The position numbers and the translations under genes are program-made. The notes beneath the pieces are model-generated. The model did not search any database. It was not told the origin of the DNA and saw only the letters and a program-made list of their open reading frames with translations. From a virus (lineage: Duplodnaviria; Heunggongvirae; Uroviricota; Caudoviricetes), in the IMG/VR virus record IMGVR_UViG_2671181028_000018: a stretch of 9,159 nt of DNA; one strand, given 5' to 3'. The stretch's first letter is position 1; every line of letters begins with the position of its first letter. Shown in pieces: positions 1 to 9,159 of this stretch.

Positions 1-98
1 TCGTCGCCAGCTTCAATGGCTGTGGCTACAGCCACAGCGCCTTCTTCCCTTGTTGCCAGTTCGTCAGGAATAGCGGCGCAAATAAAGACTTTACTCAT
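1..98 (-). CDS. Hypothetical protein, N-terminal part only (gene runs off the left edge of the window)
   Basis: Minus-strand ATG at 98..96 (forward 'cat'), GAGG about 10 nt upstream (forward 'cctc' 109..112). Frame is open to position 1, translating MSKVFICAAIPDELATREEGAVAVATAIEAGD... Same orientation as the other leftward early genes. Function not recognised. Confidence 0.4.
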   Translation of the reverse strand, partial: MSKVFICAAIPDELATREEGAVAVATAIEAGD

Positions 99-377
99 TT
101 TGTTTTAACCTCATGACAGATTTAAGGATGAATAAATCCCTGCCATTGCTGGCATTTTTAATCCGTTGGTATGGCGTTAATATGGCTGGCGGGTTATCCA
201 GCCGGCGTTTCGTTATTCAGGTACAGCGATACTTTTTTAACGGGAGGCATTCACCGGGGATTTTTTGTTCGTCCCTTACCTGAATGCAGGATGACTTACT
301 GTCATAAATTCCGGTAATCACATTTTGTGGCTCACCCGTTATAAGAAAAACGGTCATCACCAGTGCAAACGCTGAAG

Positions 378-566
378 TCACTGCTGTTCTCCGATAATAC
401 CAAGTTCAAGAAGGGCAATTCTGGAAAGTATGGAATTATCATTGAGAAGATAAGGTTCATATTTTCTCATCTTAATGGCATCTTCAGTAAACTCCCGGTT
501 ACTGAGCAGAACACCAATATCAAAACAACCTTCAGACGTATTAACGTTTGGTAATAACGTTTCCAT
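378..566 (-). CDS. Hypothetical small protein (62 aa), uncertain
   Basis: Internal start of the 378..671 minus ORF: ATG at 566..564 preceded by GAGGA with a 7-nt spacer (forward 'tcctc' 574..578). Translation METLLPNVNTSEGCFDIGVLLSNREF... No recognisable family; overlaps competing plus-strand ORFs; locally AT-rich. Confidence 0.25.
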   Translation of the reverse strand: METLLPNVNTSEGCFDIGVLLSNREFTEDAIKMRKYEPYLLNDNSILSRIALLELGIIGEQQ

Positions 567-1133
567 TATCGCGTCCTCAACAATGAATTTTGTGATGCAG
601 TGCCTGGTGCCTCCAGGTGACGTTAACCAGTTAACAATTAACGCCGGATACAGAGAATCCACCCATAACACTGTTTTTGGTTTTAACTGTTCCGCGTGCG
701 CTCAGCCGCATTCACCGCATCACAAAATTCACTTTAAAAAGGGCGGCAGAGCAGTCACGGAGTAAAACTGATACCGCCAAACGTCACCAGAAAATTGATA
801 ACAGAGGGCGTTGCAGCGGGGTTGTCACTTAAGCGTATGGTCAACCTGACAACCCGGTGTCCTCAACGGGGAAGAAATAACCCCGCCATACTTACCGCCG
901 CGCCATTTCGCGGAGTGCCACAACCGGAAGCGCACGGTCGACGAAAATTTAACGACAGGCTATCTATGAACCAGCAACCTCGCCGTGCGCTTTCGCGTTA
1001 TGCTCTGACTTTTCAGAGAAATATCCTTTCAGTAAACTGTCAGTGCCGGATGTTCACCCGTGTCCGGCGCACGCACTCCACTTTACCCGTGGAGAACTCC
1101 TTAATTACCAACCTTAGCTTCGTTGGTTAGCTA

Positions 1134-1352
1134 TTAACGCGGGTATGTAATCATGCTGGCAATGCTTAATGCCGCTGCTTTTTCCAGATTGGTGATATCC
1201 TGCTCCAGAGCGGACAGATTTTCAGCCTGCTTAGCCCTGGCTTCATTGGCCCATTTCAGATCCTGCGCTGCATTAATTTTCTGGTGCATCCACTCATAAA
1301 GTTCATCATCGGTATAGTCTGGCGCGATGATGACGGGTTCTCGTTTCTGCAT
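1134..1352 (-). CDS. Hypothetical phage early-left protein (72 aa)
   Basis: ATG at 1352..1350 with a strong RBS (GAGGA, 6-nt spacer). Translation MQKREPVIIAPDYTDDELYEWMHQKINAAQDLKWANEARAKQ... Lies 29 nt downstream of the preceding leftward gene, so operon-like packing. Confidence 0.6.
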   Translation of the reverse strand: MQKREPVIIAPDYTDDELYEWMHQKINAAQDLKWANEARAKQAENLSALEQDITNLEKAAALSIASMITYPR

Positions 1353-1381
1353 ACTGATTCCTCGCGGTGCTGTTTCGCTTA

Positions 1382-1510
1382 TCAGCCGTTAGATTTTGCC
1401 GAGCTGGAAAGCGCCTGTTTAAATTCGCTGAAGCTGAGAGCTTCTTCGCCTTCGGCAAGGCCTTCGAAGTATTCTTCGTAAGCCTTTTCCATGATTGTGT
1501 CGAAATCCAT
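1382..1510 (-). CDS. Hypothetical small acidic protein (42 aa)
   Basis: ATG at 1510..1508, stop TGA at 1384..1382. Translation MDFDTIMEKAYEEYFEGLAEGEEALSFSEFKQALSSSAKSNG, strongly acidic. Its start sits 1 nt after the stop of the upstream gene (TGA-t-ATG), with GGTGGG just upstream serving as a possible RBS. Not in the ORF track because it is under 60 aa. Confidence 0.45.
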   Translation of the reverse strand: MDFDTIMEKAYEEYFEGLAEGEEALSFSEFKQALSSSAKSNG

Positions 1511-1511
1511 A

Positions 1512-1748
1512 TCACCCACCTGAATTTCTTTCCAGCCAGCGACGCGCTCCAGATTCGGTTTTAAACGTTTTGCTTTTGGTATACGTCATCGCGGTGAACG
1601 TACCGTCCTGGTTGGGGAACACGCCACATACCAGAGATTCGCTGTTGCCAAGATCGATAGTATCCATGCTGACCTCATTTCCCCTTAACGCCGGGGTAGC
1701 GGAACAAAAACCTGCTGCATAGTTATTAAAGTTGAACCCTGCCGTCAT
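1512..1748 (-). CDS. Hypothetical phage early-left protein, first gene of the leftward operon (78 aa, or 51 aa from an internal start)
   Basis: ORF-track ORF. Two plausible starts, each with an RBS: ATG 1748..1746 (GAGG, 9-nt spacer) and ATG 1667..1665 (GAGG, 5-nt spacer; product MDTIDLGNSESLVCGVFPNQDGTFTAMTYTKSKTFKTESGARRWLERNSGG). Size and position resemble the small ydaF/ydaG-type genes next to Rac-like repressors, but sequence identity was not verified. Confidence 0.45.
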   Translation of the reverse strand: MTAGFNFNNYAAGFCSATPALRGNEVSMDTIDLGNSESLVCGVFPNQDGTFTAMTYTKSKTFKTESGARRWLERNSGG

Positions 1749-1848
1749 GTTCTTACGCCTCGGGCTGGCTACTTAACCCCTGACCACTGCCTGGTAACTC
1801 GAGGTATTGCCCTGTATTGTGTGGGACGGGATGGGTTGGTATGGGAAA

Positions 1849-1877
1849 ACTATAGGAAATGCCTAATTACTTGTCAA
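1849..1877 (-). promoter_or_regulatory. pL-like leftward early promoter
   Basis: Read on the minus strand: -35 TTGACA (1877..1872), 17-nt spacer AGTAATTAGGCATTTCC, -10 TATAGT (1854..1849). An operator site lies inside the spacer and another abuts the -35. Points toward the leftward small-gene operon. Confidence 0.6.
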
Positions 1878-1915
1878 TAGGCTATGCCTAATAATTTGGG
1901 CGCGACCTAATAGGT
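1853..1915. promoter_or_regulatory. OL-like operator cluster (three sites about 25 bp apart)
   Basis: TAGGAAATGCCTA (1853..1865) and TAGGCTATGCCTA (1878..1890) both fit TAGG-N5-CCTA. A third dyad, ACCTAATAGGT (1905..1915), sits at the same spacing but with the half-sites in swapped order. The 21-bp stretch 1871..1891 is an exact reverse complement of 2516..2536. Confidence 0.6.
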
Positions 1916-1949
1916 GATGGTTTGTGGGAGAGGTAGTAGGAGTTAACTA

Positions 1950-1971
1950 ACGGGAACTAGGAATTTCCCGT
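1950..1971 (-). terminator. Hairpin downstream of the repressor gene, possible weak terminator
   Basis: 7-bp stem ACGGGAA / TTCCCGT with an 8-nt loop, 15 to 36 nt past the repressor stop codon. No clear U-tract on either strand, so termination efficiency is doubtful. Confidence 0.25.
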
Positions 1972-1985
1972 CGGACCATATAAGT

Positions 1986-2462
1986 TTAAGTTCCTGTCTT
2001 GGTGATGTTCTGGCTTTTCCGTTTTGATTCTTGATTTTTCAGATAGTTAGCTACCTTCATTTCCATTGCGGCAATGTAGGCGCGAACGTCATGATCAACC
2101 CAACTAGGCTCCGTAGCATTTCCAGATAAGAGGAAAGCCACAATTGCTCTTTTTTCATCAGAGGCGGCTTGATAAAGGCTGTTTATGTCTAAAAGTTCAC
2201 TTTTTGTATCTGAAGTGGATGGGGTTGGTATGGGGTATTCGTTAAGCCCCCAATGCTCTGGACCAACCACATCAGAAAAGAAACGCCATAGTTCTGGAAG
2301 TTTGTCTTTACTTATCGAACCTTTCTTAATCCAGTCATGGATTGATGGTGGTTGGACTTTGAAATGACGTGCGATTTCCGCCTTTGATTTGACGGCTCCT
2401 GATGCAATTTTTTTGTTAATGGCCTGCTCTATCGCTCGGCCTAAGTCTTTACCACTAAGCAT
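1986..2462 (-). CDS. Prophage repressor, HTH type without a peptidase S24 domain (RacR-like, 158 aa)
   Basis: ORF-track ORF. N-terminal HTH-like segment KSKAEIARHFKVQPPSIHDWIKKG. No LexA/CI-type autocleavage motif seen. Divergent from the cro-like gene and flanked on both sides by operator clusters. AGGAG lies 11 nt upstream of ATG 2462..2460. Confidence 0.8.
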   Translation of the reverse strand: MLSGKDLGRAIEQAINKKIASGAVKSKAEIARHFKVQPPSIHDWIKKGSISKDKLPELWRFFSDVVGPEHWGLNEYPIPTPSTSDTKSELLDINSLYQAASDEKRAIVAFLLSGNATEPSWVDHDVRAYIAAMEMKVANYLKNQESKRKSQNITKTGT

Positions 2463-2491
2463 TGCTTAATAGTCTCCTATGCGCATCGCGT

Positions 2492-2555
2492 TAGGCAATC
2501 CCTACTCTCGATGTGTTAGGCATAGCCTATTGACAATTGTATTAGGCTAAGCCTA
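2492..2555. promoter_or_regulatory. OR-like operator cluster (three sites about 25 bp apart)
   Basis: TAGGCAATCCCTA (2492..2504), TAGGCATAGCCTA (2517..2529) and TAGGCTAAGCCTA (2543..2555), all TAGG-N5-CCTA. The third is part of a 15-bp dyad TTAGGC-TAA-GCCTAA with perfect 6-bp arms. Confidence 0.65.
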
Positions 2556-2559
2556 ATAT
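2530..2559 (+). promoter_or_regulatory. pR-like rightward early promoter
   Basis: -35 TTGACA (2530..2535), 18-nt spacer, -10 TAATAT (2554..2559). The -10 overlaps operator 2543..2555 and the -35 abuts operator 2517..2529. Predicted transcript start is about 20 nt before the ydaS-like ATG. Confidence 0.6.
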
Positions 2560-2586
2560 TGTTGCGTGTTTTTTGGAGTTCATTCG

Positions 2587-2910
2587 ATGAAAAAAGATAA
2601 CTATTCATTCAAACGAGCTTGTGCTGTTGTCGGTGGGCAATCAGCAATGGCTAGGCTTTTAGGTGTATCTCCTCCAAGCGTAAATCAATGGATCAAAGGT
2701 GTACGTCAGTTGCCTGCTGAGAGATGTCCTGCGATTGAACGAGCAACAAAAGGTGGTGTCCTGTGTGAAGAACTTCGTCCTGATGTTGATTGGACATACT
2801 TACGACGCTCGTCATGTTATTCGCAGAATATGTCGATGAAGCAACCAAATGACGAAAACGATCATACCCGAAGCATCAAGAGGCAAATGATTCATGAAAA
2901 TCAAACATGA
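2587..2910 (+). CDS. ydaS: Cro-like HTH regulator of the YdaS family
   Basis: ATG 2587 with GGAG 8 nt upstream. The ORF track's 2566 start is a GTG upstream of the predicted transcript start. Motif SFKRACAVVGGQSAMARLLGVSPPSVNQWIKGVRQLPAERCPAIERAT is characteristic of YdaS-type proteins as I recall them. First gene after pR, divergent from the repressor. Confidence 0.8.
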   Translation: MKKDNYSFKRACAVVGGQSAMARLLGVSPPSVNQWIKGVRQLPAERCPAIERATKGGVLCEELRPDVDWTYLRRSSCYSQNMSMKQPNDENDHTRSIKRQMIHENQT

Positions 2911-3319
2911 GCACATCCGCATGGCGATGAATGCCTGGGCATACCCTGATGGTGAGAAAGTTCCTGCAGCTGAAATAGCCCGGACTTATTTCGAACTGGG
3001 GATGACGTTCCCTGAACTGTACGACGACAGCCATCCGGAAGCCCTGGCCCGTAATACACAGAAAATTTTCCGTTGGCTGGATAAAGACACCCCTGATGCT
3101 GTTGAAAAAATTCAGGCTCTGTTACCGGCGATCGAAAAGGCAATGCCGCCTCTGCTGGTGGCCCGTATGCGCAGTCACAGCTCTGAGTATTACCGGGAGA
3201 TTGTCGAACGGCGGGATCGGCTGGTGAAGGATGTCGACGATTTTGTTGCGTCAGCGGTTGTTTTGTATGACCAGATGAATCGCGGCGGCCCGGCAGGGAA
3301 TGCTGTGGTGATGCACTAA
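2894..3319 (+). CDS. ydaT: YdaT-family protein (CII-like regulator, historically called a toxin)
   Basis: ATG 2894 with AAGAGG 10 nt upstream; overlaps the ydaS-like gene by 17 nt. Begins MKIKHEHI..., 141 aa, immediately downstream of the ydaS-like gene as in the Rac immunity region. Confidence 0.75.
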   Translation: MKIKHEHIRMAMNAWAYPDGEKVPAAEIARTYFELGMTFPELYDDSHPEALARNTQKIFRWLDKDTPDAVEKIQALLPAIEKAMPPLLVARMRSHSSEYYREIVERRDRLVKDVDDFVASAVVLYDQMNRGGPAGNAVVMH

Positions 3320-3341
3320 AAGCACGGTGTTCGGGGGTTTT

Positions 3342-4304
3342 ATGAGCAGCAAGCTTCATGGTCTTGTCTGGGAAGGGTGCGCCTTCACCGGCATGATCTT
3401 ATCCAGGGTGGCGGTTATGGCCCGTCTTGCAGACTACAGCAATGACGAGGGTGTGTCATGGCCTGCCATTGAAACTATCCGGCGTCAGATCGGTGCAAGA
3501 AGTGAATCCACAGTGAAATCGGCTATTGCAGAACTGGCGAAAGAGGGCTGGCTGACGAAGGAAGAGCGTAAGGTCGGTGGGCGTAATGTAAGCAATATCT
3601 ATCGGCTTAATGTGGAAAAACTCGAAGCAGCAGCTGCGGCGGCGCGTGAGTCATATAAACCGAAAAGAAAAATTAGCCCGGCAAAAAATGACCAGTTAAC
3701 AGTTGACCCGTCAAATATTGCCCCCTCAACGGTTGACCCGTCAAATTTTGATGGATCAACTGTTGATAAAAAACTGCCGATTAGGGGGGCGATGATTGAC
3801 CCCGATCCGTCAGTATTAAAACCTGATCCGTCAGATAAAAGATCTTCTTGTCCGGACGCTTCGCAACCGGACCCGCAGACGGCTGAACAGGATTTTTTAA
3901 CCCGACACCCTGACGCGGTTGTGTTCAGTGCGAAAAAACGCCAGTGGGGAAGTCAGGAAGATTTGGTGTGCGCACAGTGGATCTGGGGACGAATCGTGAG
4001 TCTTTACGAGCAGGCGGCCAGCTATGATGGCGAGATCACTAGACCGAAAGAACCCAACTGGACAGCATGGGCCAATGACGTTCGCACAATGCGGATGCTG
4101 GATGGCAGAACTCACAGACAAATTTGTGAAATGTTTGGGCGTCTCCAGCGGGATTCGTTCTGGGTAAAAAACATCATGAGTCCGGCAAAACTCCGGGAAA
4201 AATGGGATGAACTGGTTATCCGCCTGGGGCGTTCGCCTGCGCAGCGTTGCGTGAATCACATTTCTGAACCGGACACTGAAATTCCGCCGGGCTTCAGGGG
4301 GTAA
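3342..4304 (+). CDS. Replication-initiator-like protein with N-terminal winged-helix/HTH domain (lambda O / YdaU position)
   Basis: ORF-track ORF 3327..4304; preferred start is ATG 3342 (GGGGG 4 nt upstream) rather than GTG 3327. N-terminus LVWEGCAFTGMILSRVAVMARLADYSNDEGVSWPAIETIRRQIGARSESTVKSAIAELAKEGWL looks like a phage replication-protein HTH. A repeat-encoded linker (TVDPSN... PDPS...) separates it from the C-terminal domain. Confidence 0.7.
   Translation: MSSKLHGLVWEGCAFTGMILSRVAVMARLADYSNDEGVSWPAIETIRRQIGARSESTVKSAIAELAKEGWLTKEERKVGGRNVSNIYRLNVEKLEAAAAAARESYKPKRKISPAKNDQLTVDPSNIAPSTVDPSNFDGSTVDKKLPIRGAMIDPDPSVLKPDPSDKRSSCPDASQPDPQTAEQDFLTRHPDAVVFSAKKRQWGSQEDLVCAQWIWGRIVSLYEQAASYDGEITRPKEPNWTAWANDVRTMRMLDGRTHRQICEMFGRLQRDSFWVKNIMSPAKLREKWDELVIRLGRSPAQRCVNHISEPDTEIPPGFRG
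3694..3834 (+). repeat. Iteron-like direct repeats inside the replication-initiator gene (candidate origin)
   Basis: GTTGACCCGTCAAAT occurs exactly twice (3702..3716 and 3732..3746, period 30 bp); the core TTGAC-CC-GTCAA is a near-dyad. GATCCGTCAG occurs twice (3804..3813 and 3825..3834, period 21 bp). A more A/T-rich stretch follows (3834..3850). Confidence 0.4.
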
Positions 4305-4344
4305 GTGTTAATTTCTGGTCATGAGGTAACTTTCAGGAGGGCTT

Positions 4345-4767
4345 GTGGCAAAAGTTTTTACACAAGAAGAGCGGGAAAAAATTAAAGGGCAGGTTGTTGA
4401 ACTCGTACGCCAGAGTGGGCGCGAGACGTTACGACAACTGGAAACTAAAACTGGGGCAACAAGATATCTGATGAGCGTTCTGGCCAGAGAGCTGGTTGCC
4501 AGTGGCGATGTATACAATTCTGGCTACGGGTTATTCCCGTCTGAACAGGCTCGTAAAGACTGGCAAAATGCCCGCAAAAAACTCTCAAGGGCAAAGCTGA
4601 AGAAACCATCTGCGGTTGATCCGGACCTTATCTGGTCATTACCTGATGGAGAAATACGTCGTTACGACAGGCATCATAATATAATTTGTACTGAGTGTCG
4701 TAAAAGCGAAGTTATGCAGCGCATATTGTCGTTTTATCAGGGGAATGTTCGGTATTTATTAAAGTGA
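4345..4767 (+). CDS. Hypothetical protein (140 aa), function unknown
   Basis: ORF-track ORF with a GTG start at 4345 and AGGAGG 4 nt upstream. Basic, with a Cys/His-containing C-terminus (HHNIICTECRK). Sits where a helicase-loader partner would be expected, but no DnaC/P-like motifs seen. The 3' end becomes A/T-rich. Confidence 0.5.
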   Translation: MAKVFTQEEREKIKGQVVELVRQSGRETLRQLETKTGATRYLMSVLARELVASGDVYNSGYGLFPSEQARKDWQNARKKLSRAKLKKPSAVDPDLIWSLPDGEIRRYDRHHNIICTECRKSEVMQRILSFYQGNVRYLLK

Positions 4768-5076
4768 CGAGATTAAAATGCATTAGTTAAGATGTGAATT
4801 GACATTTTGTGGCACAGGATAGAGCTATCGTGGTTGTCCGCTTTGTGCCAGAAGCGGAAGTTAGAAATTATCTGCCAACCGATAAGATGGCTGCCTAAGT
4901 CGTAGCGATTCAGCACTGTTTTAGCGGCGCTCGATTGCAAAGTCGTGCTTTGCTGACTTGCGATTGTGCTCTTTACGAGCAAAGCTTTCAGGTATAGTAA
5001 GTGCTAACTGTAGTGTAAAATTATAGGGATAGATGAAGAAAACAACGAGGCTTTAGCTAATCTTTGCAGTTGTGTC

Positions 5077-5085
5077 TGCTATAAT
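5077..5085 (+). promoter_or_regulatory. Extended -10 promoter candidate for the NTPase gene
   Basis: TGcTATAAT (TG at 5077..5078, TATAAT at 5080..5085) matches the extended -10 consensus; no good -35 at 17-bp spacing. About 80 nt upstream of ATG 5167, which has AAGGG 6 nt upstream. Confidence 0.35.
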
Positions 5086-5166
5086 AAGGCGAAATTTTAT
5101 CTGCATGATTTTGTTTGATTAACTCCGAAAGCCAGCTCTCTCGGTGAAGATTGGGAAGGGATATCA

Positions 5167-8100
5167 ATGAGTGATGATAGCTATAAATTTCAAAAGTTAA
5201 CGCCGTTCAGCGATGTTGAGCTGGGTGTATATAAAAATGCGATAGATTTTGTTTTTGCCAATAACGATCTAAAAAATGTTGCGATATCAGGGCAATATAG
5301 CGCAGGAAAAAGTAGTCTTATCGAATCCTATAAGAAAAGTCATTCAAATATAAAGTTTGTTCATATCTCACTTGCTCATTTCAGATCGATTGAGGAAGCT
5401 GAAACTAATGAACCAAGTAAAGATATAAATGAAACCGCGTTAGAAGGTAAAGTTCTTAACCAGTTAATTCACCAAATTAATGCTGATGATATTCCCCAGA
5501 CACATTTTAAAGTAAAGAAAAAAATAAAAACTAACAACATTGTGATAAACACCATCTTTACGGTGTTATTTATCGCCATGATACTACATATCACGCTATT
5601 TAATAAGTGGGAAAAGTTTGTTTCACTTTTATCTGAAGGTAATATAAAGACACTACTTACATTATCAACTAAATACGATACGCTTTTAATTAGTGGGTTT
5701 ATATGTACTATCCTATCTTGTATTTTCATTTACAAGTTAATAAAAACCCAAAAGAATCGTAATGTTCTTAAGAAAATAAATTTACAGGGTAATGAAATAG
5801 AGATTTTTGAAGAAAGTAACGAGTCTTATTTCGATAGATATTTAAATGAAGTATTGTACCTTTTCGAGAACGTTGATGCTGATGCCATTGTTTTTGAAGA
5901 CATGGACCGTTTTAATAGTAATAACATCTTTGAACGTCTTCATGAGGTTAACAGACTGGTTAATATTCAACGGGACACAGCAGGGCACAAGAAATCGACG
6001 TTACGTTTTATTTACTTGCTTCGTGATGATATCTTCATTTCGAAGGATAGAACCAAATTCTTTGATTATATCATTCCAGTTATTCCTGTTGTTGATAGTT
6101 CTAACTCTTACGATCAGTTTATCACACATTTTGATGGTGGTGGTATTCTCAAGTTGTTCAATGAAAGATTTCTACAAGGGATGTCTTTATATATTGATGA
6201 TATGAGAATATTGAAGAATATTTATAACGAATTTCAAATTTATTATAACAAATTAAACACGACAGAACTTGACTGTAATAAAATGTTGGCCATTATTGCC
6301 TATAAGAATATTTTCCCAAGAGATTTTAGTGAGTTGCAACTTAATCAAGGTATGGTTTATACCATATTTAGTGAAAAAGACAACCTTATTATTGAAGAAA
6401 TAAAGAAAATAGAAAAAGATATTAGAGATAGAAAAAAAGAGATTGAGGCAATCAATGATGAAATACTCAACTCTAGTCAGGAGGTTGATGCTATATACGA
6501 TAAGGAATTATCTAGATATAATAATCATCCTCACTATAATCAGGCTGAGAAAGCTGATATAGCAAAGAGAAGGGCGGCTAGAAAAGAAAGTGTTGAAAAT
6601 AAATTTAATGGTAAAATAGAAGAAATTAATGAGCTTATATCAAGATCAAGAGAAAGTTTGGTTGATTCTAGAAACAAAAGACTTAAAGAAGTAATAACTA
6701 GAGAAAACATTGATGAAATATTTAAACTCACCTATACCAATGAAATTGGAGAGGAAAGAGACTTTAATGAAATAAAAAGCAGTGAGCATTTTGACTTGCT
6801 TAAATACCTTATTCGTGATGGTTATATTGATGAAACCTATACCGACTATATGACCTATTTTTATGAAAATAGCCTGAGTCGAATTGATAAGATGTTTTTA
6901 CGCAGCATTACCGATCAAAAAGGCAAAGAGTTCACTTATCAACTCAAGAACCCCAAGCTGGTCGTTGCCCGCCTTCGAGAAGTGGATTTTGAACAGGAAG
7001 AGGCGCTTAATTTTGATTTATTAGCTTATCTGCTTCAAACGCCAGCCCAGGTAAACTTAATAAAACGTTTATTCAAACAACTAAGAAAAGATAGAAGAGT
7101 TGAGTTTATTCGTGGTTACTTTGAAACTGAGAGGGCTCAGCCTGTCTTCATTAATCGATTAAATACACAGTGGCCTGAGTTTTTTTCTTATGCGCTGACA
7201 GAGAGTGAATTTTCTGCTGATTGGGTTAAACTCTACTCTATAGGCACGTTTTATTATTCTGCCAATGACGCCATCGAGGCCATTAATATTGATGATTGTC
7301 TGACTGATTACATCTCTGATTCGGCAGGTTATTTAGCAATATCAGAACCGAAGGTTGACAAATTAATTAGTGGTTTTAAGTTGCTTAACGTCTCTTTTGT
7401 CAGTATTAAATTTGAAAACGCAAATAAAGTACTCTTTGATGCGGTTTACCAGCATTCACTTTATGATATTAATTTTTCCAACCTGACCTTAATGCTGAGT
7501 AAGGTTTACACGCTTAATAGTGAAGATGATATTCGCCATAAGAACTATACACTAGTGATGTCACAACCTGATTCTCCCTTGGCTAGTTATGTTAATAACC
7601 ATATTAGGGACTATCTGGATATGGTTTTATCTAGTTGTGATGGTTCAATCGTGGATGATGAATCCATTGTTTTATCCGTTCTTAATAATGAGGGAATATC
7701 TGATGAACAAAAAGGCCAGTATATAAACGCTTTGCAAACTTTCGTGACATCTCTGAGTGAGGTTGAGAGCGAATCTTTATGGTCATCTTTGTTGGATAAA
7801 GATAGAGCAGTGTGCTCTGAGGAAAATATTGTCTCTTATTTTGAACATGTTGATGGACTGGATGACTCACTTATCGAATTTATCAATAGAACTGATGTAG
7901 ACCTGAATTTTCAAAATATTAATATTGATAACGAGCTTAAAGGTAAATTATTTAAATCGATTGTTATCTGTAATGATTTATCAAATGATAAATATGAAAA
8001 ATTAATTTGCTCACTAAATATTATTTGTAAAACATCCTTTAGCGCTAGTAATATCGCGAGTGATAAGTTCAAAATATTAGTGGATAAAAATATTATTCGT

Positions 8101-8799
8101 ATGAATGTTGCGCCACTTAATTTCATACGAGATAACTATTCAGAGCAACTTTCCTATTATATTCATAAGAATATCAGGGCATACGTTGAATTAATGACGA
8201 TTGATAACTTTATTTTGGATGAGGCTATATCAATACTTTCTTGGAAAGTTGATGATGATTTGAAAGTTAAGCTACTCGAGTTTGTTAAAACTCCGTTGGC
8301 TATTTATAGTAAGAATTACTCTCAGGTCGTTAATGACTATATTTTAGAAAATAATTTTAAACCAGATGAACTTCTAATCTTGACGTCATCTTATAAAACT
8401 TGGGGAACCTCTACTCAGTCGCTCATCTTGAGTCGAGCAATACAGGATATATCAGCATTGATAGCAAGTCCTAATGATGTTTCTGAACCGTTACTAAAAA
8501 ACCTGTTTGTCGCAGAGGGACTGAATATGCAGAATAAAATAGCACTGCTAATCGCTTTGTTGCCGGGTAAGGATTTGAGTAAGACGACTTGCAAAGAGTA
8601 TCTTGATCTGCTTGGTTTATCGGAGTTCAGTAAAATTTTGGGGCGAGGCAAACCTAAAATTGAAGTTGATTCAACTAATCAAAGTTTATTAACAGCATTA
8701 AGAGATAACCACTTCTTCTCTGATTTTGAGGTGGATAATGAAAATCCCACTTATTATAAAATAACAAGGCGGCGCTCTATGTTTGGCTCAGATACATAG
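5167..8799 (+). CDS. Large P-loop NTPase with transmembrane insertion in the NTPase domain (KAP-type / YobI-like / Tmn-like), 1210 aa
   Basis: ORF-track ORF. Walker A GQYSAGKS (5290..5313). Two hydrophobic helices between the Walker motifs: IVINTIFTVLFIAMILHITLF (about 5536..5601) and LLISGFICTILSCIFIYKLI (about 5680..5745). Walker B IVFEDMDR (5887..5910), matching the hhhhDDxDR form typical of KAP NTPases. A Lys/Glu-rich coiled-coil-like stretch (roughly residues 400 to 520) and a long C-terminal region without recognisable motifs follow. Codon usage is strongly A/T-biased, unlike the flanks. Confidence 0.9.
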   Translation: MSDDSYKFQKLTPFSDVELGVYKNAIDFVFANNDLKNVAISGQYSAGKSSLIESYKKSHSNIKFVHISLAHFRSIEEAETNEPSKDINETALEGKVLNQLIHQINADDIPQTHFKVKKKIKTNNIVINTIFTVLFIAMILHITLFNKWEKFVSLLSEGNIKTLLTLSTKYDTLLISGFICTILSCIFIYKLIKTQKNRNVLKKINLQGNEIEIFEESNESYFDRYLNEVLYLFENVDADAIVFEDMDRFNSNNIFERLHEVNRLVNIQRDTAGHKKSTLRFIYLLRDDIFISKDRTKFFDYIIPVIPVVDSSNSYDQFITHFDGGGILKLFNERFLQGMSLYIDDMRILKNIYNEFQIYYNKLNTTELDCNKMLAIIAYKNIFPRDFSELQLNQGMVYTIFSEKDNLIIEEIKKIEKDIRDRKKEIEAINDEILNSSQEVDAIYDKELSRYNNHPHYNQAEKADIAKRRAARKESVENKFNGKIEEINELISRSRESLVDSRNKRLKEVITRENIDEIFKLTYTNEIGEERDFNEIKSSEHFDLLKYLIRDGYIDETYTDYMTYFYENSLSRIDKMFLRSITDQKGKEFTYQLKNPKLVVARLREVDFEQEEALNFDLLAYLLQTPAQVNLIKRLFKQLRKDRRVEFIRGYFETERAQPVFINRLNTQWPEFFSYALTESEFSADWVKLYSIGTFYYSANDAIEAINIDDCLTDYISDSAGYLAISEPKVDKLISGFKLLNVSFVSIKFENANKVLFDAVYQHSLYDINFSNLTLMLSKVYTLNSEDDIRHKNYTLVMSQPDSPLASYVNNHIRDYLDMVLSSCDGSIVDDESIVLSVLNNEGISDEQKGQYINALQTFVTSLSEVESESLWSSLLDKDRAVCSEENIVSYFEHVDGLDDSLIEFINRTDVDLNFQNINIDNELKGKLFKSIVICNDLSNDKYEKLICSLNIICKTSFSASNIASDKFKILVDKNIIRMNVAPLNFIRDNYSEQLSYYIHKNIRAYVELMTIDNFILDEAISILSWKVDDDLKVKLLEFVKTPLAIYSKNYSQVVNDYILENNFKPDELLILTSSYKTWGTSTQSLILSRAIQDISALIASPNDVSEPLLKNLFVAEGLNMQNKIALLIALLPGKDLSKTTCKEYLDLLGLSEFSKILGRGKPKIEVDSTNQSLLTALRDNHFFSDFEVDNENPTYYKITRRRSMFGSDT

Positions 8800-8820
8800 C
8801 ATTATGTATTTTTCTACAGT

Positions 8821-8848
8821 TTGGGCACTTTTATAGTGCCCAATTTTT
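8821..8848 (+). terminator. Rho-independent terminator of the NTPase gene
   Basis: Perfect 9-bp stem TTGGGCACT (8821..8829) / AGTGCCCAA (8835..8843), 5-nt loop TTTAT, then TTTTT (8844..8848); starts 22 nt after the TAG stop (8797..8799). Confidence 0.65.
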
Positions 8849-9159
8849 ACGCTGAAACTTACGCAGATAATCTGACTTTTTCCCAGTTGACGAGTACACC
8901 TAGGTGTTCGTGAAGCCCTCAGTGTGTTGGGACAGATGCGAGCGTCCGCTCTTCGCTCAAAGCGGCCTAGAAGGTTAGCTTGCGTCGGACTTGGCGTATT
9001 TAAAGAAGTGCTGGTGGTGACTGGTTGTTGTGTTCCATTTCTACAGAACAAAATCACAGAAACTATACCCAATAGTTGGATTTGCCCCTATATTTCCAGA
9101 CATCTGTTATCACTTAACCCATTACAAGCCCGCTGCCGCAGATATTCCCGTGGCGAGCG

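Follow-up and report, generated by a model that had tools for sequence, protein, structure and literature searches.

The gene at positions 5167..8799 of a 9,159-nt stretch of tailed phage DNA (IMG/VR record IMGVR_UViG_2671181028_000018; this whole stretch is called the window below) codes a protein of the Tmn family and probably provides single-protein defence against phages. The window is identical to positions 2167911-2177069 of Escherichia coli DEC9B (NZ_CP074760.1). As the sequence-only reading of this DNA had reported, the gene is a single long open reading frame (ORF) on the + strand, with an ATG start and 1210 codons for amino acids. A probability of roughly 0.78 is given to the reading in which the gene is a moron of a lambdoid prophage, is expressed in the lysogen under the control of its own upstream sequence, and codes a Tmn-type defence protein of the YobI family that acts by a mechanism like that of Tmn-25. 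Tmn is a validated single-gene anti-phage defence whose tested members all protect against lytic phages, only a handful of variants having been assayed so far. Its phylogeny comprises ten clades, 5,915 genomes and a set of 785 sequences (Wu et al. 2026, preprint).

The family assignment is carried by searches with profile hidden Markov models (HMMs), which came out as predicted. The Pfam YobI-ATPase profile (PF20693) matches residues 22-398 from end to end (profile positions 1-363 of 363; E=8.3e-123; 410.9 bits against a cut-off of 27). The PADLOC model of Tmn (PDLC02220) is matched with E=4.9e-67 in two stretches, the best of which aligns residues 9-439 to positions 27-474 of the 1273 in the profile. 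Identical proteins bear the RefSeq label 'YobI family P-loop NTPase'. Pfam KAP_NTPase (PF07693) did not match the protein even at E<=1, the Pfam search gave no STAND family match and the NCBIfam search yielded nothing useful. Membership of the KAP family, whose layout the sequence-only reading had recognised in the order of motifs, is not supported, for want of a PF07693 match. Wu et al. (2026) place Tmn in the YobI family, distinct from KAP, and together with the missing profile match this makes the protein KAP-like in layout only. The accompanying description as a Tmn candidate was right about the family, while the word candidate no longer applies because Tmn has been experimentally validated in other lineages. 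The defence family is a known one, and the gene is a divergent member of it that public HMMs suffice to name. We know of no characterisation of YobI of Bacillus subtilis, the ~1200-residue namesake of PF20693, nor of a function for it. The window protein has in common with YobI the length class and a match over the full profile, the two being compared at the level of the Pfam family.

Comparison with Tmn-25 (E. coli ECOR25; clades Ia/Ib) used two plasmid proteins, WP_064055658.1 and WP_001144732.1, as stand-ins. The first, an F-plasmid protein of 1273 amino acids named 'anti-phage transmembrane ATPase', has every mutated residue at the published Tmn-25 numbering. In a four-sequence alignment the window protein keeps all nine essential NTPase residues: G47, K48, Y231, D245, R248, N266, K297, F298 and R347 correspond, in this order, to G66, K67, Y262, D276, R279, N297, K325, F326 and R374 of Tmn-25. 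Mutation of each of these abolished defence in Tmn-25 (Wu et al. 2026, preprint). The proximal-arm residues F506 and Y541/R544 of Tmn-25 align to Y451, A460 and R472, in a gapped and poorly aligned stretch, because the window protein lacks most of the clade I insert at these positions. Alignment of a 60-sequence profile to the plasmid Tmn proteins with hhalign covers the full length (probability 100%, E=8e-58, 1117 columns), and the proximal arm alone is recovered against the clade I pair with E=1.3e-11 and a probability of 97%. With a deeper HMM built from the distal arm, the C-termini of plasmid Tmn reach 25-27 bits, collinearly, and 200 shuffled sequences at most 2.9 bits. Judged by these sequence comparisons, the protein is a member of the Tmn family over its whole length, if a distant one.

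The two proteins are alike in being the product of a single gene of ~1200-1270 codons, in the succession of a Walker A motif, two transmembrane (TM) helices and an EDxDR Walker B motif, in having a coiled-coil proximal arm and an alpha-solenoid distal arm, and in their carriage by mobile elements. They differ in the proximal arm, which in the window protein is ~45-60 residues shorter and lacks most of the alpha/beta insert, in the setting and composition of the gene (prophage or chromosome with 33% guanine plus cytosine (GC), not F-type plasmids), and in the nearest non-enterobacterial relatives of the window protein, which are Fusobacterium and Ruminococcus proteins.

The succession of Walker A, two hydrophobic helices and Walker B, already noticed in the sequence-only reading, is confirmed by motif positions and hydropathy. 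A 19-residue Kyte-Doolittle scan exceeds 1.6 at two sites only across the whole protein, in segments starting at residues 122-130 and 170-175. An AlphaFold2 (AF2) model of residues 11-1210, built from a 60-sequence alignment (36-97% identity), has a mean predicted local distance difference test (pLDDT) of 81.5 and a predicted template modelling score (pTM) of 0.47. It places helices 122-143 and 170-196 between the strand and helix of Walker A and the strand of Walker B, which agrees with the insertion that had been predicted. The NTPase domain is interrupted by a two-helix membrane hairpin, so both Walker motifs would be cytoplasmic. Foldseek matches the N-terminal part to the ORC/Cdc6 AAA+ cores in the PDB with a probability of 1.0.

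Further on, the model has long helical hairpins at ~404-501 and an unbroken run of short helices at ~605-1180 with pLDDT of ~90. The PDB matches of the C-terminal part are HEAT/ARM solenoids such as BRAT1, CAND1, PP2A-A and importins. When the distal arm (residues 620-1210) was used as query, the 1,280 cluster representatives recovered at E<=0.001 were with few exceptions proteins of 1,150-1,300 amino acids matched at their C-terminus, which shows that this arm is an integral and conserved part of the family. The C-terminal ~800 residues, part of the region of ~950 residues in which the sequence-only reading had suspected a sensor or effector, are predicted to be a coiled coil followed by a HEAT/ARM-like solenoid, and this region is regarded as the sensor in the Tmn literature. 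By analogy it may play the same part here. The coordinates of all features are given in Table 1.

Table 1. Features of the gene, its flanking signals and the unit that contains it (positions in the window).
Feature	Position	Strand	Basis or remark
Walker A, GQYSAGKS, residues 42-49	5290..5313	+	Motif; G47/K48 correspond to G66/K67 of Tmn-25
TM helix 1, residues 122-143	5530..5595	+	Hydropathy peak and AF2 helix
TM helix 2, residues 170-196	5674..5754	+	Hydropathy peak and AF2 helix
Walker B, EDMDR, residues 244-248	5896..5910	+	D245/R248 correspond to D276/R279 of Tmn-25
YobI-ATPase (PF20693) match region	5230..6360	+	Pfam profile positions 1-363/363, 410.9 bits; Foldseek ORC/Cdc6
Proximal arm, residues ~399-604, long helical hairpins and a small mixed region, shorter than in Tmn-25	6361..6978	+	AF2, hhalign
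Distal arm, residues ~605-1200, all-alpha solenoid, putative trigger sensor	6979..8766	+	AF2, Foldseek, HMM
Extended -10 promoter-like element TGCTATAAT, no good -35	5077..5085	+	Read directly from the sequence
Shine-Dalgarno-like GGGAAGGG, 6 nt 5' of the ATG	5153..5160	+	Read from the sequence
Intrinsic-terminator-like hairpin and T-run	8821..8853	+	Sequence scan
Transferable unit: 332 bp upstream, gene, 168 bp downstream	4835..8967	+	Single blastn block
Left boundary palindrome L, GTCCGCT-TT-GTGCCAG-A-AGCGGAA	4836..4859	+	Unit alignments; same type at left ends in prophage contigs
Right boundary palindrome R, GTCCGCT-CT-TCGCTCA-A-AGCGGCC	8944..8967	+	Unit alignments

Wu et al. (2026, preprint) describe Tmn-25 as a decameric membrane complex activated by RIIB of phage T2; once active it causes ATP depletion, Mg2+ export and plasmolysis, and synergy is reported with both Gabija and Septu. 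By analogy with Tmn-25, the protomers coded by the window gene would assemble into a ring in the membrane, and their cytosolic arms would recognise a protein that the phage makes at an early stage of infection. Once bound, this trigger would switch on ATP hydrolysis and so lead to a drain of ATP, export of Mg2+ and plasmolysis, and defences that sense ATP might be activated in turn. The trigger, and hence the range of phages affected, is probably different from that of Tmn-25 (T2 RIIB), because the distal arm is the most divergent part of the protein.

A similar layout is found in PifA, the KAP NTPase of the F plasmid, which also combines a P-loop NTPase with phage exclusion. A defence of this kind would sense the phage, depolarise or permeabilise the membrane, leak nucleotides and kill the cell, in place of exporting Mg2+ and causing a reversible plasmolysis. 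PifA is the older worked example, cited in Wu et al. (2026), and both proteins have a pair of TM helices within the P-loop domain, between Walker A and Walker B. With arms so divergent, the output might not be the same, and the export of other ions by homologues is a possibility raised by Wu et al. themselves. This mode of action is nonetheless unlikely for the window protein: KAP_NTPase is unmatched while YobI-ATPase is matched end to end, and the Tmn-25 residues linked to the handling of Mg2+ and nucleotides are all kept. PifA depolarises the membrane and leaks nucleotides, whereas neither depolarisation nor leakage is found with Tmn-25 (Wu et al. 2026). Avs and other STAND proteins are likewise comparable in their logic, in which a repeat-containing sensor recognises a phage protein and passes the signal to an NTPase switch, and Avs4 is among the weak Foldseek matches. 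They differ in that the window protein is membrane-embedded, has no separate effector domain and no match to a STAND HMM, and in that the Tmn oligomer is of another kind.

Several observations weigh against a Tmn-25-like defence protein. Identity to WP_064055658.1 is 25.6% and extends over residues 4-612 only (E=5e-55), with nothing found by BLAST beyond this point; the best stretch in the PADLOC Tmn model spans 35% of that model; and hhalign with the distal arm alone is weak (probability 24%). The pTM of the AF2 model leaves the relative placement of the domains uncertain. A sigma-70 consensus scan of positions 4768-5166 found no -35/-10 promoter, and a few E. coli copies of the gene are broken by insertion sequence (IS) elements. 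The lineage of Tmn to which the protein belongs is known from sequence alone, from which its oligomeric state, trigger and ion export cannot be deduced, and what is known of how Tmn-25 works comes from a preprint whose map is at 11.6 A (Wu et al. 2026). A defence role for the Tmn protein is in turn supported by the presence of a cassette with an AbiH-family gene at the same prophage slot in another E. coli strain, described below.

The gene is a natural, prophage-borne and highly divergent Tmn variant in which the catalytic core is kept and the putative sensor arm is different. This combination offers a ready test of whether the arms set the specificity for the trigger and whether Mg2+ export and plasmolysis are properties of the whole family. 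The gene is present in 32 of the 5,426 complete genomes of E. coli, its range spans six genera or more, and it may therefore affect the host range of phages used in therapy.

The gene moves as part of a unit of 4.13 kb, bounded by the palindromes L on the left and R on the right. This unit is found as one blastn block with 93-97% identity in loci of Klebsiella, Serratia, Yersinia, Pectobacterium and Morganella, with unrelated flanks; the block starts at 4835, 4836 or 4840 (5011 in Morganella) and ends at 8950-8967. In E. coli it lies in a lambdoid prophage, and in Klebsiella in an island that also contains genes for an HNH protein and a methylase, IS110, and an integrase accompanied by AlpA. 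It occupies plain chromosomal sites in Serratia, Pectobacterium and Morganella, and is part of an array in Yersinia. These six different neighbourhoods have only the 4.13-kb unit in common and no operon partners are conserved, which bears out the earlier view of a self-contained single-gene cassette since the unit moves between unrelated contexts. In Klebsiella an IS110-family element sits at R (locus L006, 11784-13051) and homology stops inside R, at 8950. An rve-type IS lies in or next to R in Yersinia (locus L012, 9790-11003). After R in Serratia liquefaciens (locus L009, 11913-13316) there are a degenerate L-like site, a gene for a 103-residue protein and a stand-alone thymidylate-kinase-like gene, which may form an accessory unit.

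In E. coli 503025 the same slot of the prophage, with DUF977 on one side and hokD on the other, is taken by another L..R unit, with an AbiH-family gene and a gene for a 463-residue protein (locus L016, 5236-7925). E. coli A20 has the unit of strain 503025 without the genes, L and R being separated by a 218-bp filler (locus L015, 3236-3505). When the 5,426 E. coli genomes were searched with the two flanks joined into one artificial sequence, no clean empty site with a single palindrome turned up, A20 being the nearest to it. On a Yersinia kristensenii contig (locus L012), four or more L..R units, the Tmn unit among them, form a chromosomal array with junctions at 972/997, 4747/4778, 5627/5669 and 14564/14606. 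The other cargo of this array is mostly without a Pfam match and includes proteins of 825 and 330 residues and a His_Phos_1 protein.

The gene had also been credited with a promoter-like element and a terminator of its own. The terminator stands, as a hairpin with a T-run: its stem of 9 bp with 5 G-C pairs (8821-8843) lies 22 nt past the stop codon and is followed by TTTTT, and the Klebsiella and Serratia copies have the hairpin unchanged in stem and loop, the Serratia copy lacking one T of the run. The promoter-like element is real as a sequence, the extended -10 TGCTATAAT being invariant in the Klebsiella and Serratia copies of the unit, and is weaker evidence than the earlier note implied, as it went unsupported by the consensus scan. 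The 322 nt upstream of the gene (4845-5166) are 94-98% identical between genera, compared with a synonymous divergence (dS) of 0.08-0.16 in the gene. The region seems therefore constrained, which suggests that it has a regulatory function. Folding of the RNA from 4860-5175 (z=+0.41) revealed no significant structured leader, and Rfam gave no match there.

In E. coli the gene is chromosomal in all the genomes that carry it, and 31 of the 32 copies are at least 99% identical. Proteins with 92-97% identity are found in Klebsiella, Serratia, Yersinia, Pectobacterium, Enterobacter and Morganella. The next relatives, with full-length identities of 36-52%, come from Fusobacterium, Cetobacterium, Ruminococcus and gut metagenomes; that of Fusobacterium vincentii is at positions 5974-9696 of locus L005. 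The foreign composition pointed out earlier is evident from the GC content of the coding sequence, 0.328 (0.303 at third codon positions), against 0.475 in window positions 1-4834. The low GC content and the Fusobacterium- and Ruminococcus-type relatives together suggest a recent import across phyla from a low-GC lineage.

An imported low-GC gene might be no more than an inactive passenger, silent or no longer functional in E. coli. Its GC content of 0.33 would favour silencing by H-NS, and some copies are disrupted: the matches in strains D1 and NN5 are broken up and overlap with IS elements of the annotation (ISEc8; IS5-family), two further E. coli matches (H55 and H59) each cover two or three separately annotated features named 'hypothetical protein', which hints at an interruption, and the Tmn unit on one viral contig (locus L062) has a longest ORF of 1,123 residues in place of 1,210. 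The IS-split and shortened copies suggest an occasional loss of function. An altogether inactive gene is very improbable, given that the 3.6-kb ORF is intact, at 99% identity or more, in at least 29 of the 32 complete E. coli genomes with the gene. The ratio of nonsynonymous to synonymous divergence (dN/dS) in pairwise comparisons with four other genera is 0.18-0.27, slightly higher in the distal arm, which indicates purifying selection, and the upstream region is better conserved than synonymous sites.

Palindromes of the L and R type also bound other units. A pattern fitting L and the reverse complement of R matched at least 120 stretches of IMG/VR, and the order of sites was counted in those IMG/VR loci where the pattern did not impose their spacing. 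Among the matches listed, R is followed by L at 15-18 nt in 15 of 18 cases, and the mirrored arrangement has 0-18 nt in 8 of 8; L is followed by R at 339-4,084 nt in 23 cases, with 18 mirrored ones, and hardly any other order occurs. The L..R units listed, 54 in all, fall into 39 unrelated sequence clusters, two of the units being the Tmn unit. The cargo of prophage units was sampled with one protein per distinct cluster among these matches, and 10 of the 20 proteins have PADLOC matches. Five are strong, four of them near full length: DRT RT_UG17 (5e-155), PD-T7-1 (7e-157), PDC-S25 (2e-144), PDC-S35 (1e-69) and CBASS E1-E2 (2e-249). Pfam domains of the cargo are TIR_2, GmrSD_N, SIR2_2, the CAP12/Pycsar TIR domain, DUF3800, DUF4365, HNH_2 and one weak HEPN/RES match.

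This cargo bears on the possibility that the window gene codes a conflict protein not directed against lytic phages, which would exclude plasmids, satellites or superinfecting lambdoid phages, or would stabilise the element that carries it. Carriage by mobile elements in every context seen is consistent with such a role, YobI-family proteins are mostly uncharacterised and no more than a handful of Tmn variants was ever assayed. All tested members of the family protect, however, against lytic phages, and genuine anti-phage genes are found in neighbouring cassettes of this type, so that a role of this kind appears quite improbable.

The units reach beyond prophages. A stricter junction pattern with 24 specified bases, for which ~0.02 chance matches are expected in 596 Gb by our own arithmetic, matched at least 120 stretches of a species-genome collection, on chromosomes and plasmids, and every named organism among the matches listed belongs to the Enterobacterales. 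The consensus of 72 junctions is A-n-GTCCGCT-nn-TCGCTCA-n-AGCGGAC-CTTnAGCTCnnTnAnnTn-GTCCGCT-nn-GTGCCAG-n-AGCGGAC. The general form of L is GTCCGCT-nn-GTGCCAG-n-AGCGGAC and that of R is GTCCGCT-nn-TCGCTCA-n-AGCGGAC, successive units being joined as R-18 nt-L. The matches listed from both collections together give 134 units in 110 unrelated cargo clusters. Chromosomal units also carry transporters, hydrolases and regulators, and some long 'units' may be chromosome between unrelated sites. Single units are shared by unrelated loci: one of 1,032 nt is 99.7% identical in loci without similarity on either flank (L072/L095/L126 versus L128), and another of 794 nt occurs in one viral and one genomic locus with unrelated flanks. 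In Phytobacter ursingii a 917-nt unit is present on two contigs of one genome with 99.6% identity (L138, 6962-7878; L158, 3994-4910); its left flanks are unrelated and its right flanks are too short for comparison.

The order of the sites and the shared boundaries are observations, and it is put forward as a hypothesis that L and R serve exchange. Tentatively, and with odds somewhat below even, the Tmn gene might be one cargo of a general and apparently undescribed cassette system of the Enterobacterales, with units of 0.4-6 kb that have L on the left and R on the right and whose cargo in prophages is mostly defence genes. L and R could be two heterospecific, protein-bound recombination sites between which a segment can be swapped, much as in recombinase-mediated cassette exchange, of which this would be a natural counterpart. 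They could instead be portable short homologies for phage recombinases of the Red/RecET type. The 7-bp inverted arms around an asymmetric 10-bp spacer, the two non-identical sites, the replacement in the prophage slot and the absence of compensatory changes in the arms fit exchange sites. At arm position 4, 121 distinct junctions among the species-genome matches listed have C/G in 60 cases, C/A in 23, T/G in 19 and T/A in 5, where ~6 T/A are expected if the arms vary independently. Such independent variation argues for half-sites bound by protein and against a selected hairpin. No recombinase gene was found inside the L..R units.

Other known elements agree less well with these sites. A structural hairpin, as in attC sites, is disfavoured by the lack of covariation of the arms and by DNA folding, which gives z of ~-3.3 and -3.4 for copies of L and unconvincing values of -0.30, -0.77 and -2.14 for R-type sites. 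An IS200/IS605 or REP/RAYT element is disfavoured by the independent variation of the arms and because tblastn with reconstructed IS200 TnpA and E. coli RAYT sequences as queries found no match in 2.3 Mb of loci. Integron gene cassettes are rejected: there are no RYYYAAC/GTTRRRY boxes, each junction has two distinct palindromes, and no integron integrase was seen in the loci. Rfam gave no match at the junctions even at E<=1. The likenesses to the lambda nut boxA (CGCTCTT inside R) and to the shufflon sfx core (GTGCCAA inside L) are judged coincidental because the surrounding consensus does not fit.

The nearest analogy found in a full-text literature search is that of the PeSL 'mobile regulatory cassettes' of T4-type phages (PMC2839356). 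Like these and like integron cassettes, the L..R units have short conserved sites, 1-4 genes, diverse cargo, arrays and unrelated contexts. The Acinetobacter pdif modules are also comparable in that short sites bound small units of diverse cargo. The L..R units differ by their two different sites per unit, the R-18 nt-L junctions, cargo on either strand and sites that are not promoters. A search of full-text literature found no description of defence cassettes bounded by palindromes, which may be known under another name.

Should L and R indeed serve for exchange, this would account for the movement of single defence genes among prophages, islands and chromosomes even though these genes bring no recombinase with them. 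The L...R arrangement would also be a simple sequence handle for mining new defence genes, as 10 of the 20 sampled prophage cargo proteins have no PADLOC match. The organisation in palindrome-bounded cassettes deserves follow-up more than the gene itself, which taken alone is of modest interest because it belongs to a known defence family and can already be named from public HMMs.

The location in a prophage, stated in the sequence-only reading, is confirmed by a lambdoid gene neighbourhood and by the prophage's own integrase and excisionase genes, 8 kb leftward. On one side of the Tmn gene is the DUF977 gene, which belongs to the replication module, and on the other the hokD/nin/Q region. Its left-hand neighbours are Rac/Qin-like: an exonuclease gene, DicB, the DicF RNA, YdfC, a RacR-type repressor, YdaS/YdaT-like proteins, a replication organiser and DUF977. 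To the right there is IS2 and then the relBE/hokD/nin/Q region. The IS2 copy starts ~115 nt past R (window 9083-9159), and homology to other prophages stops at 9082. The DicF small RNA, at 741-792 on the - strand (76.7 bits), is the sole Rfam match in the window; together with dicB, ydfC, a DUF1391 gene and the gene of the RacR-type repressor (378-2462) it forms a cell-division-inhibition module typical of Qin/Rac-like prophages.

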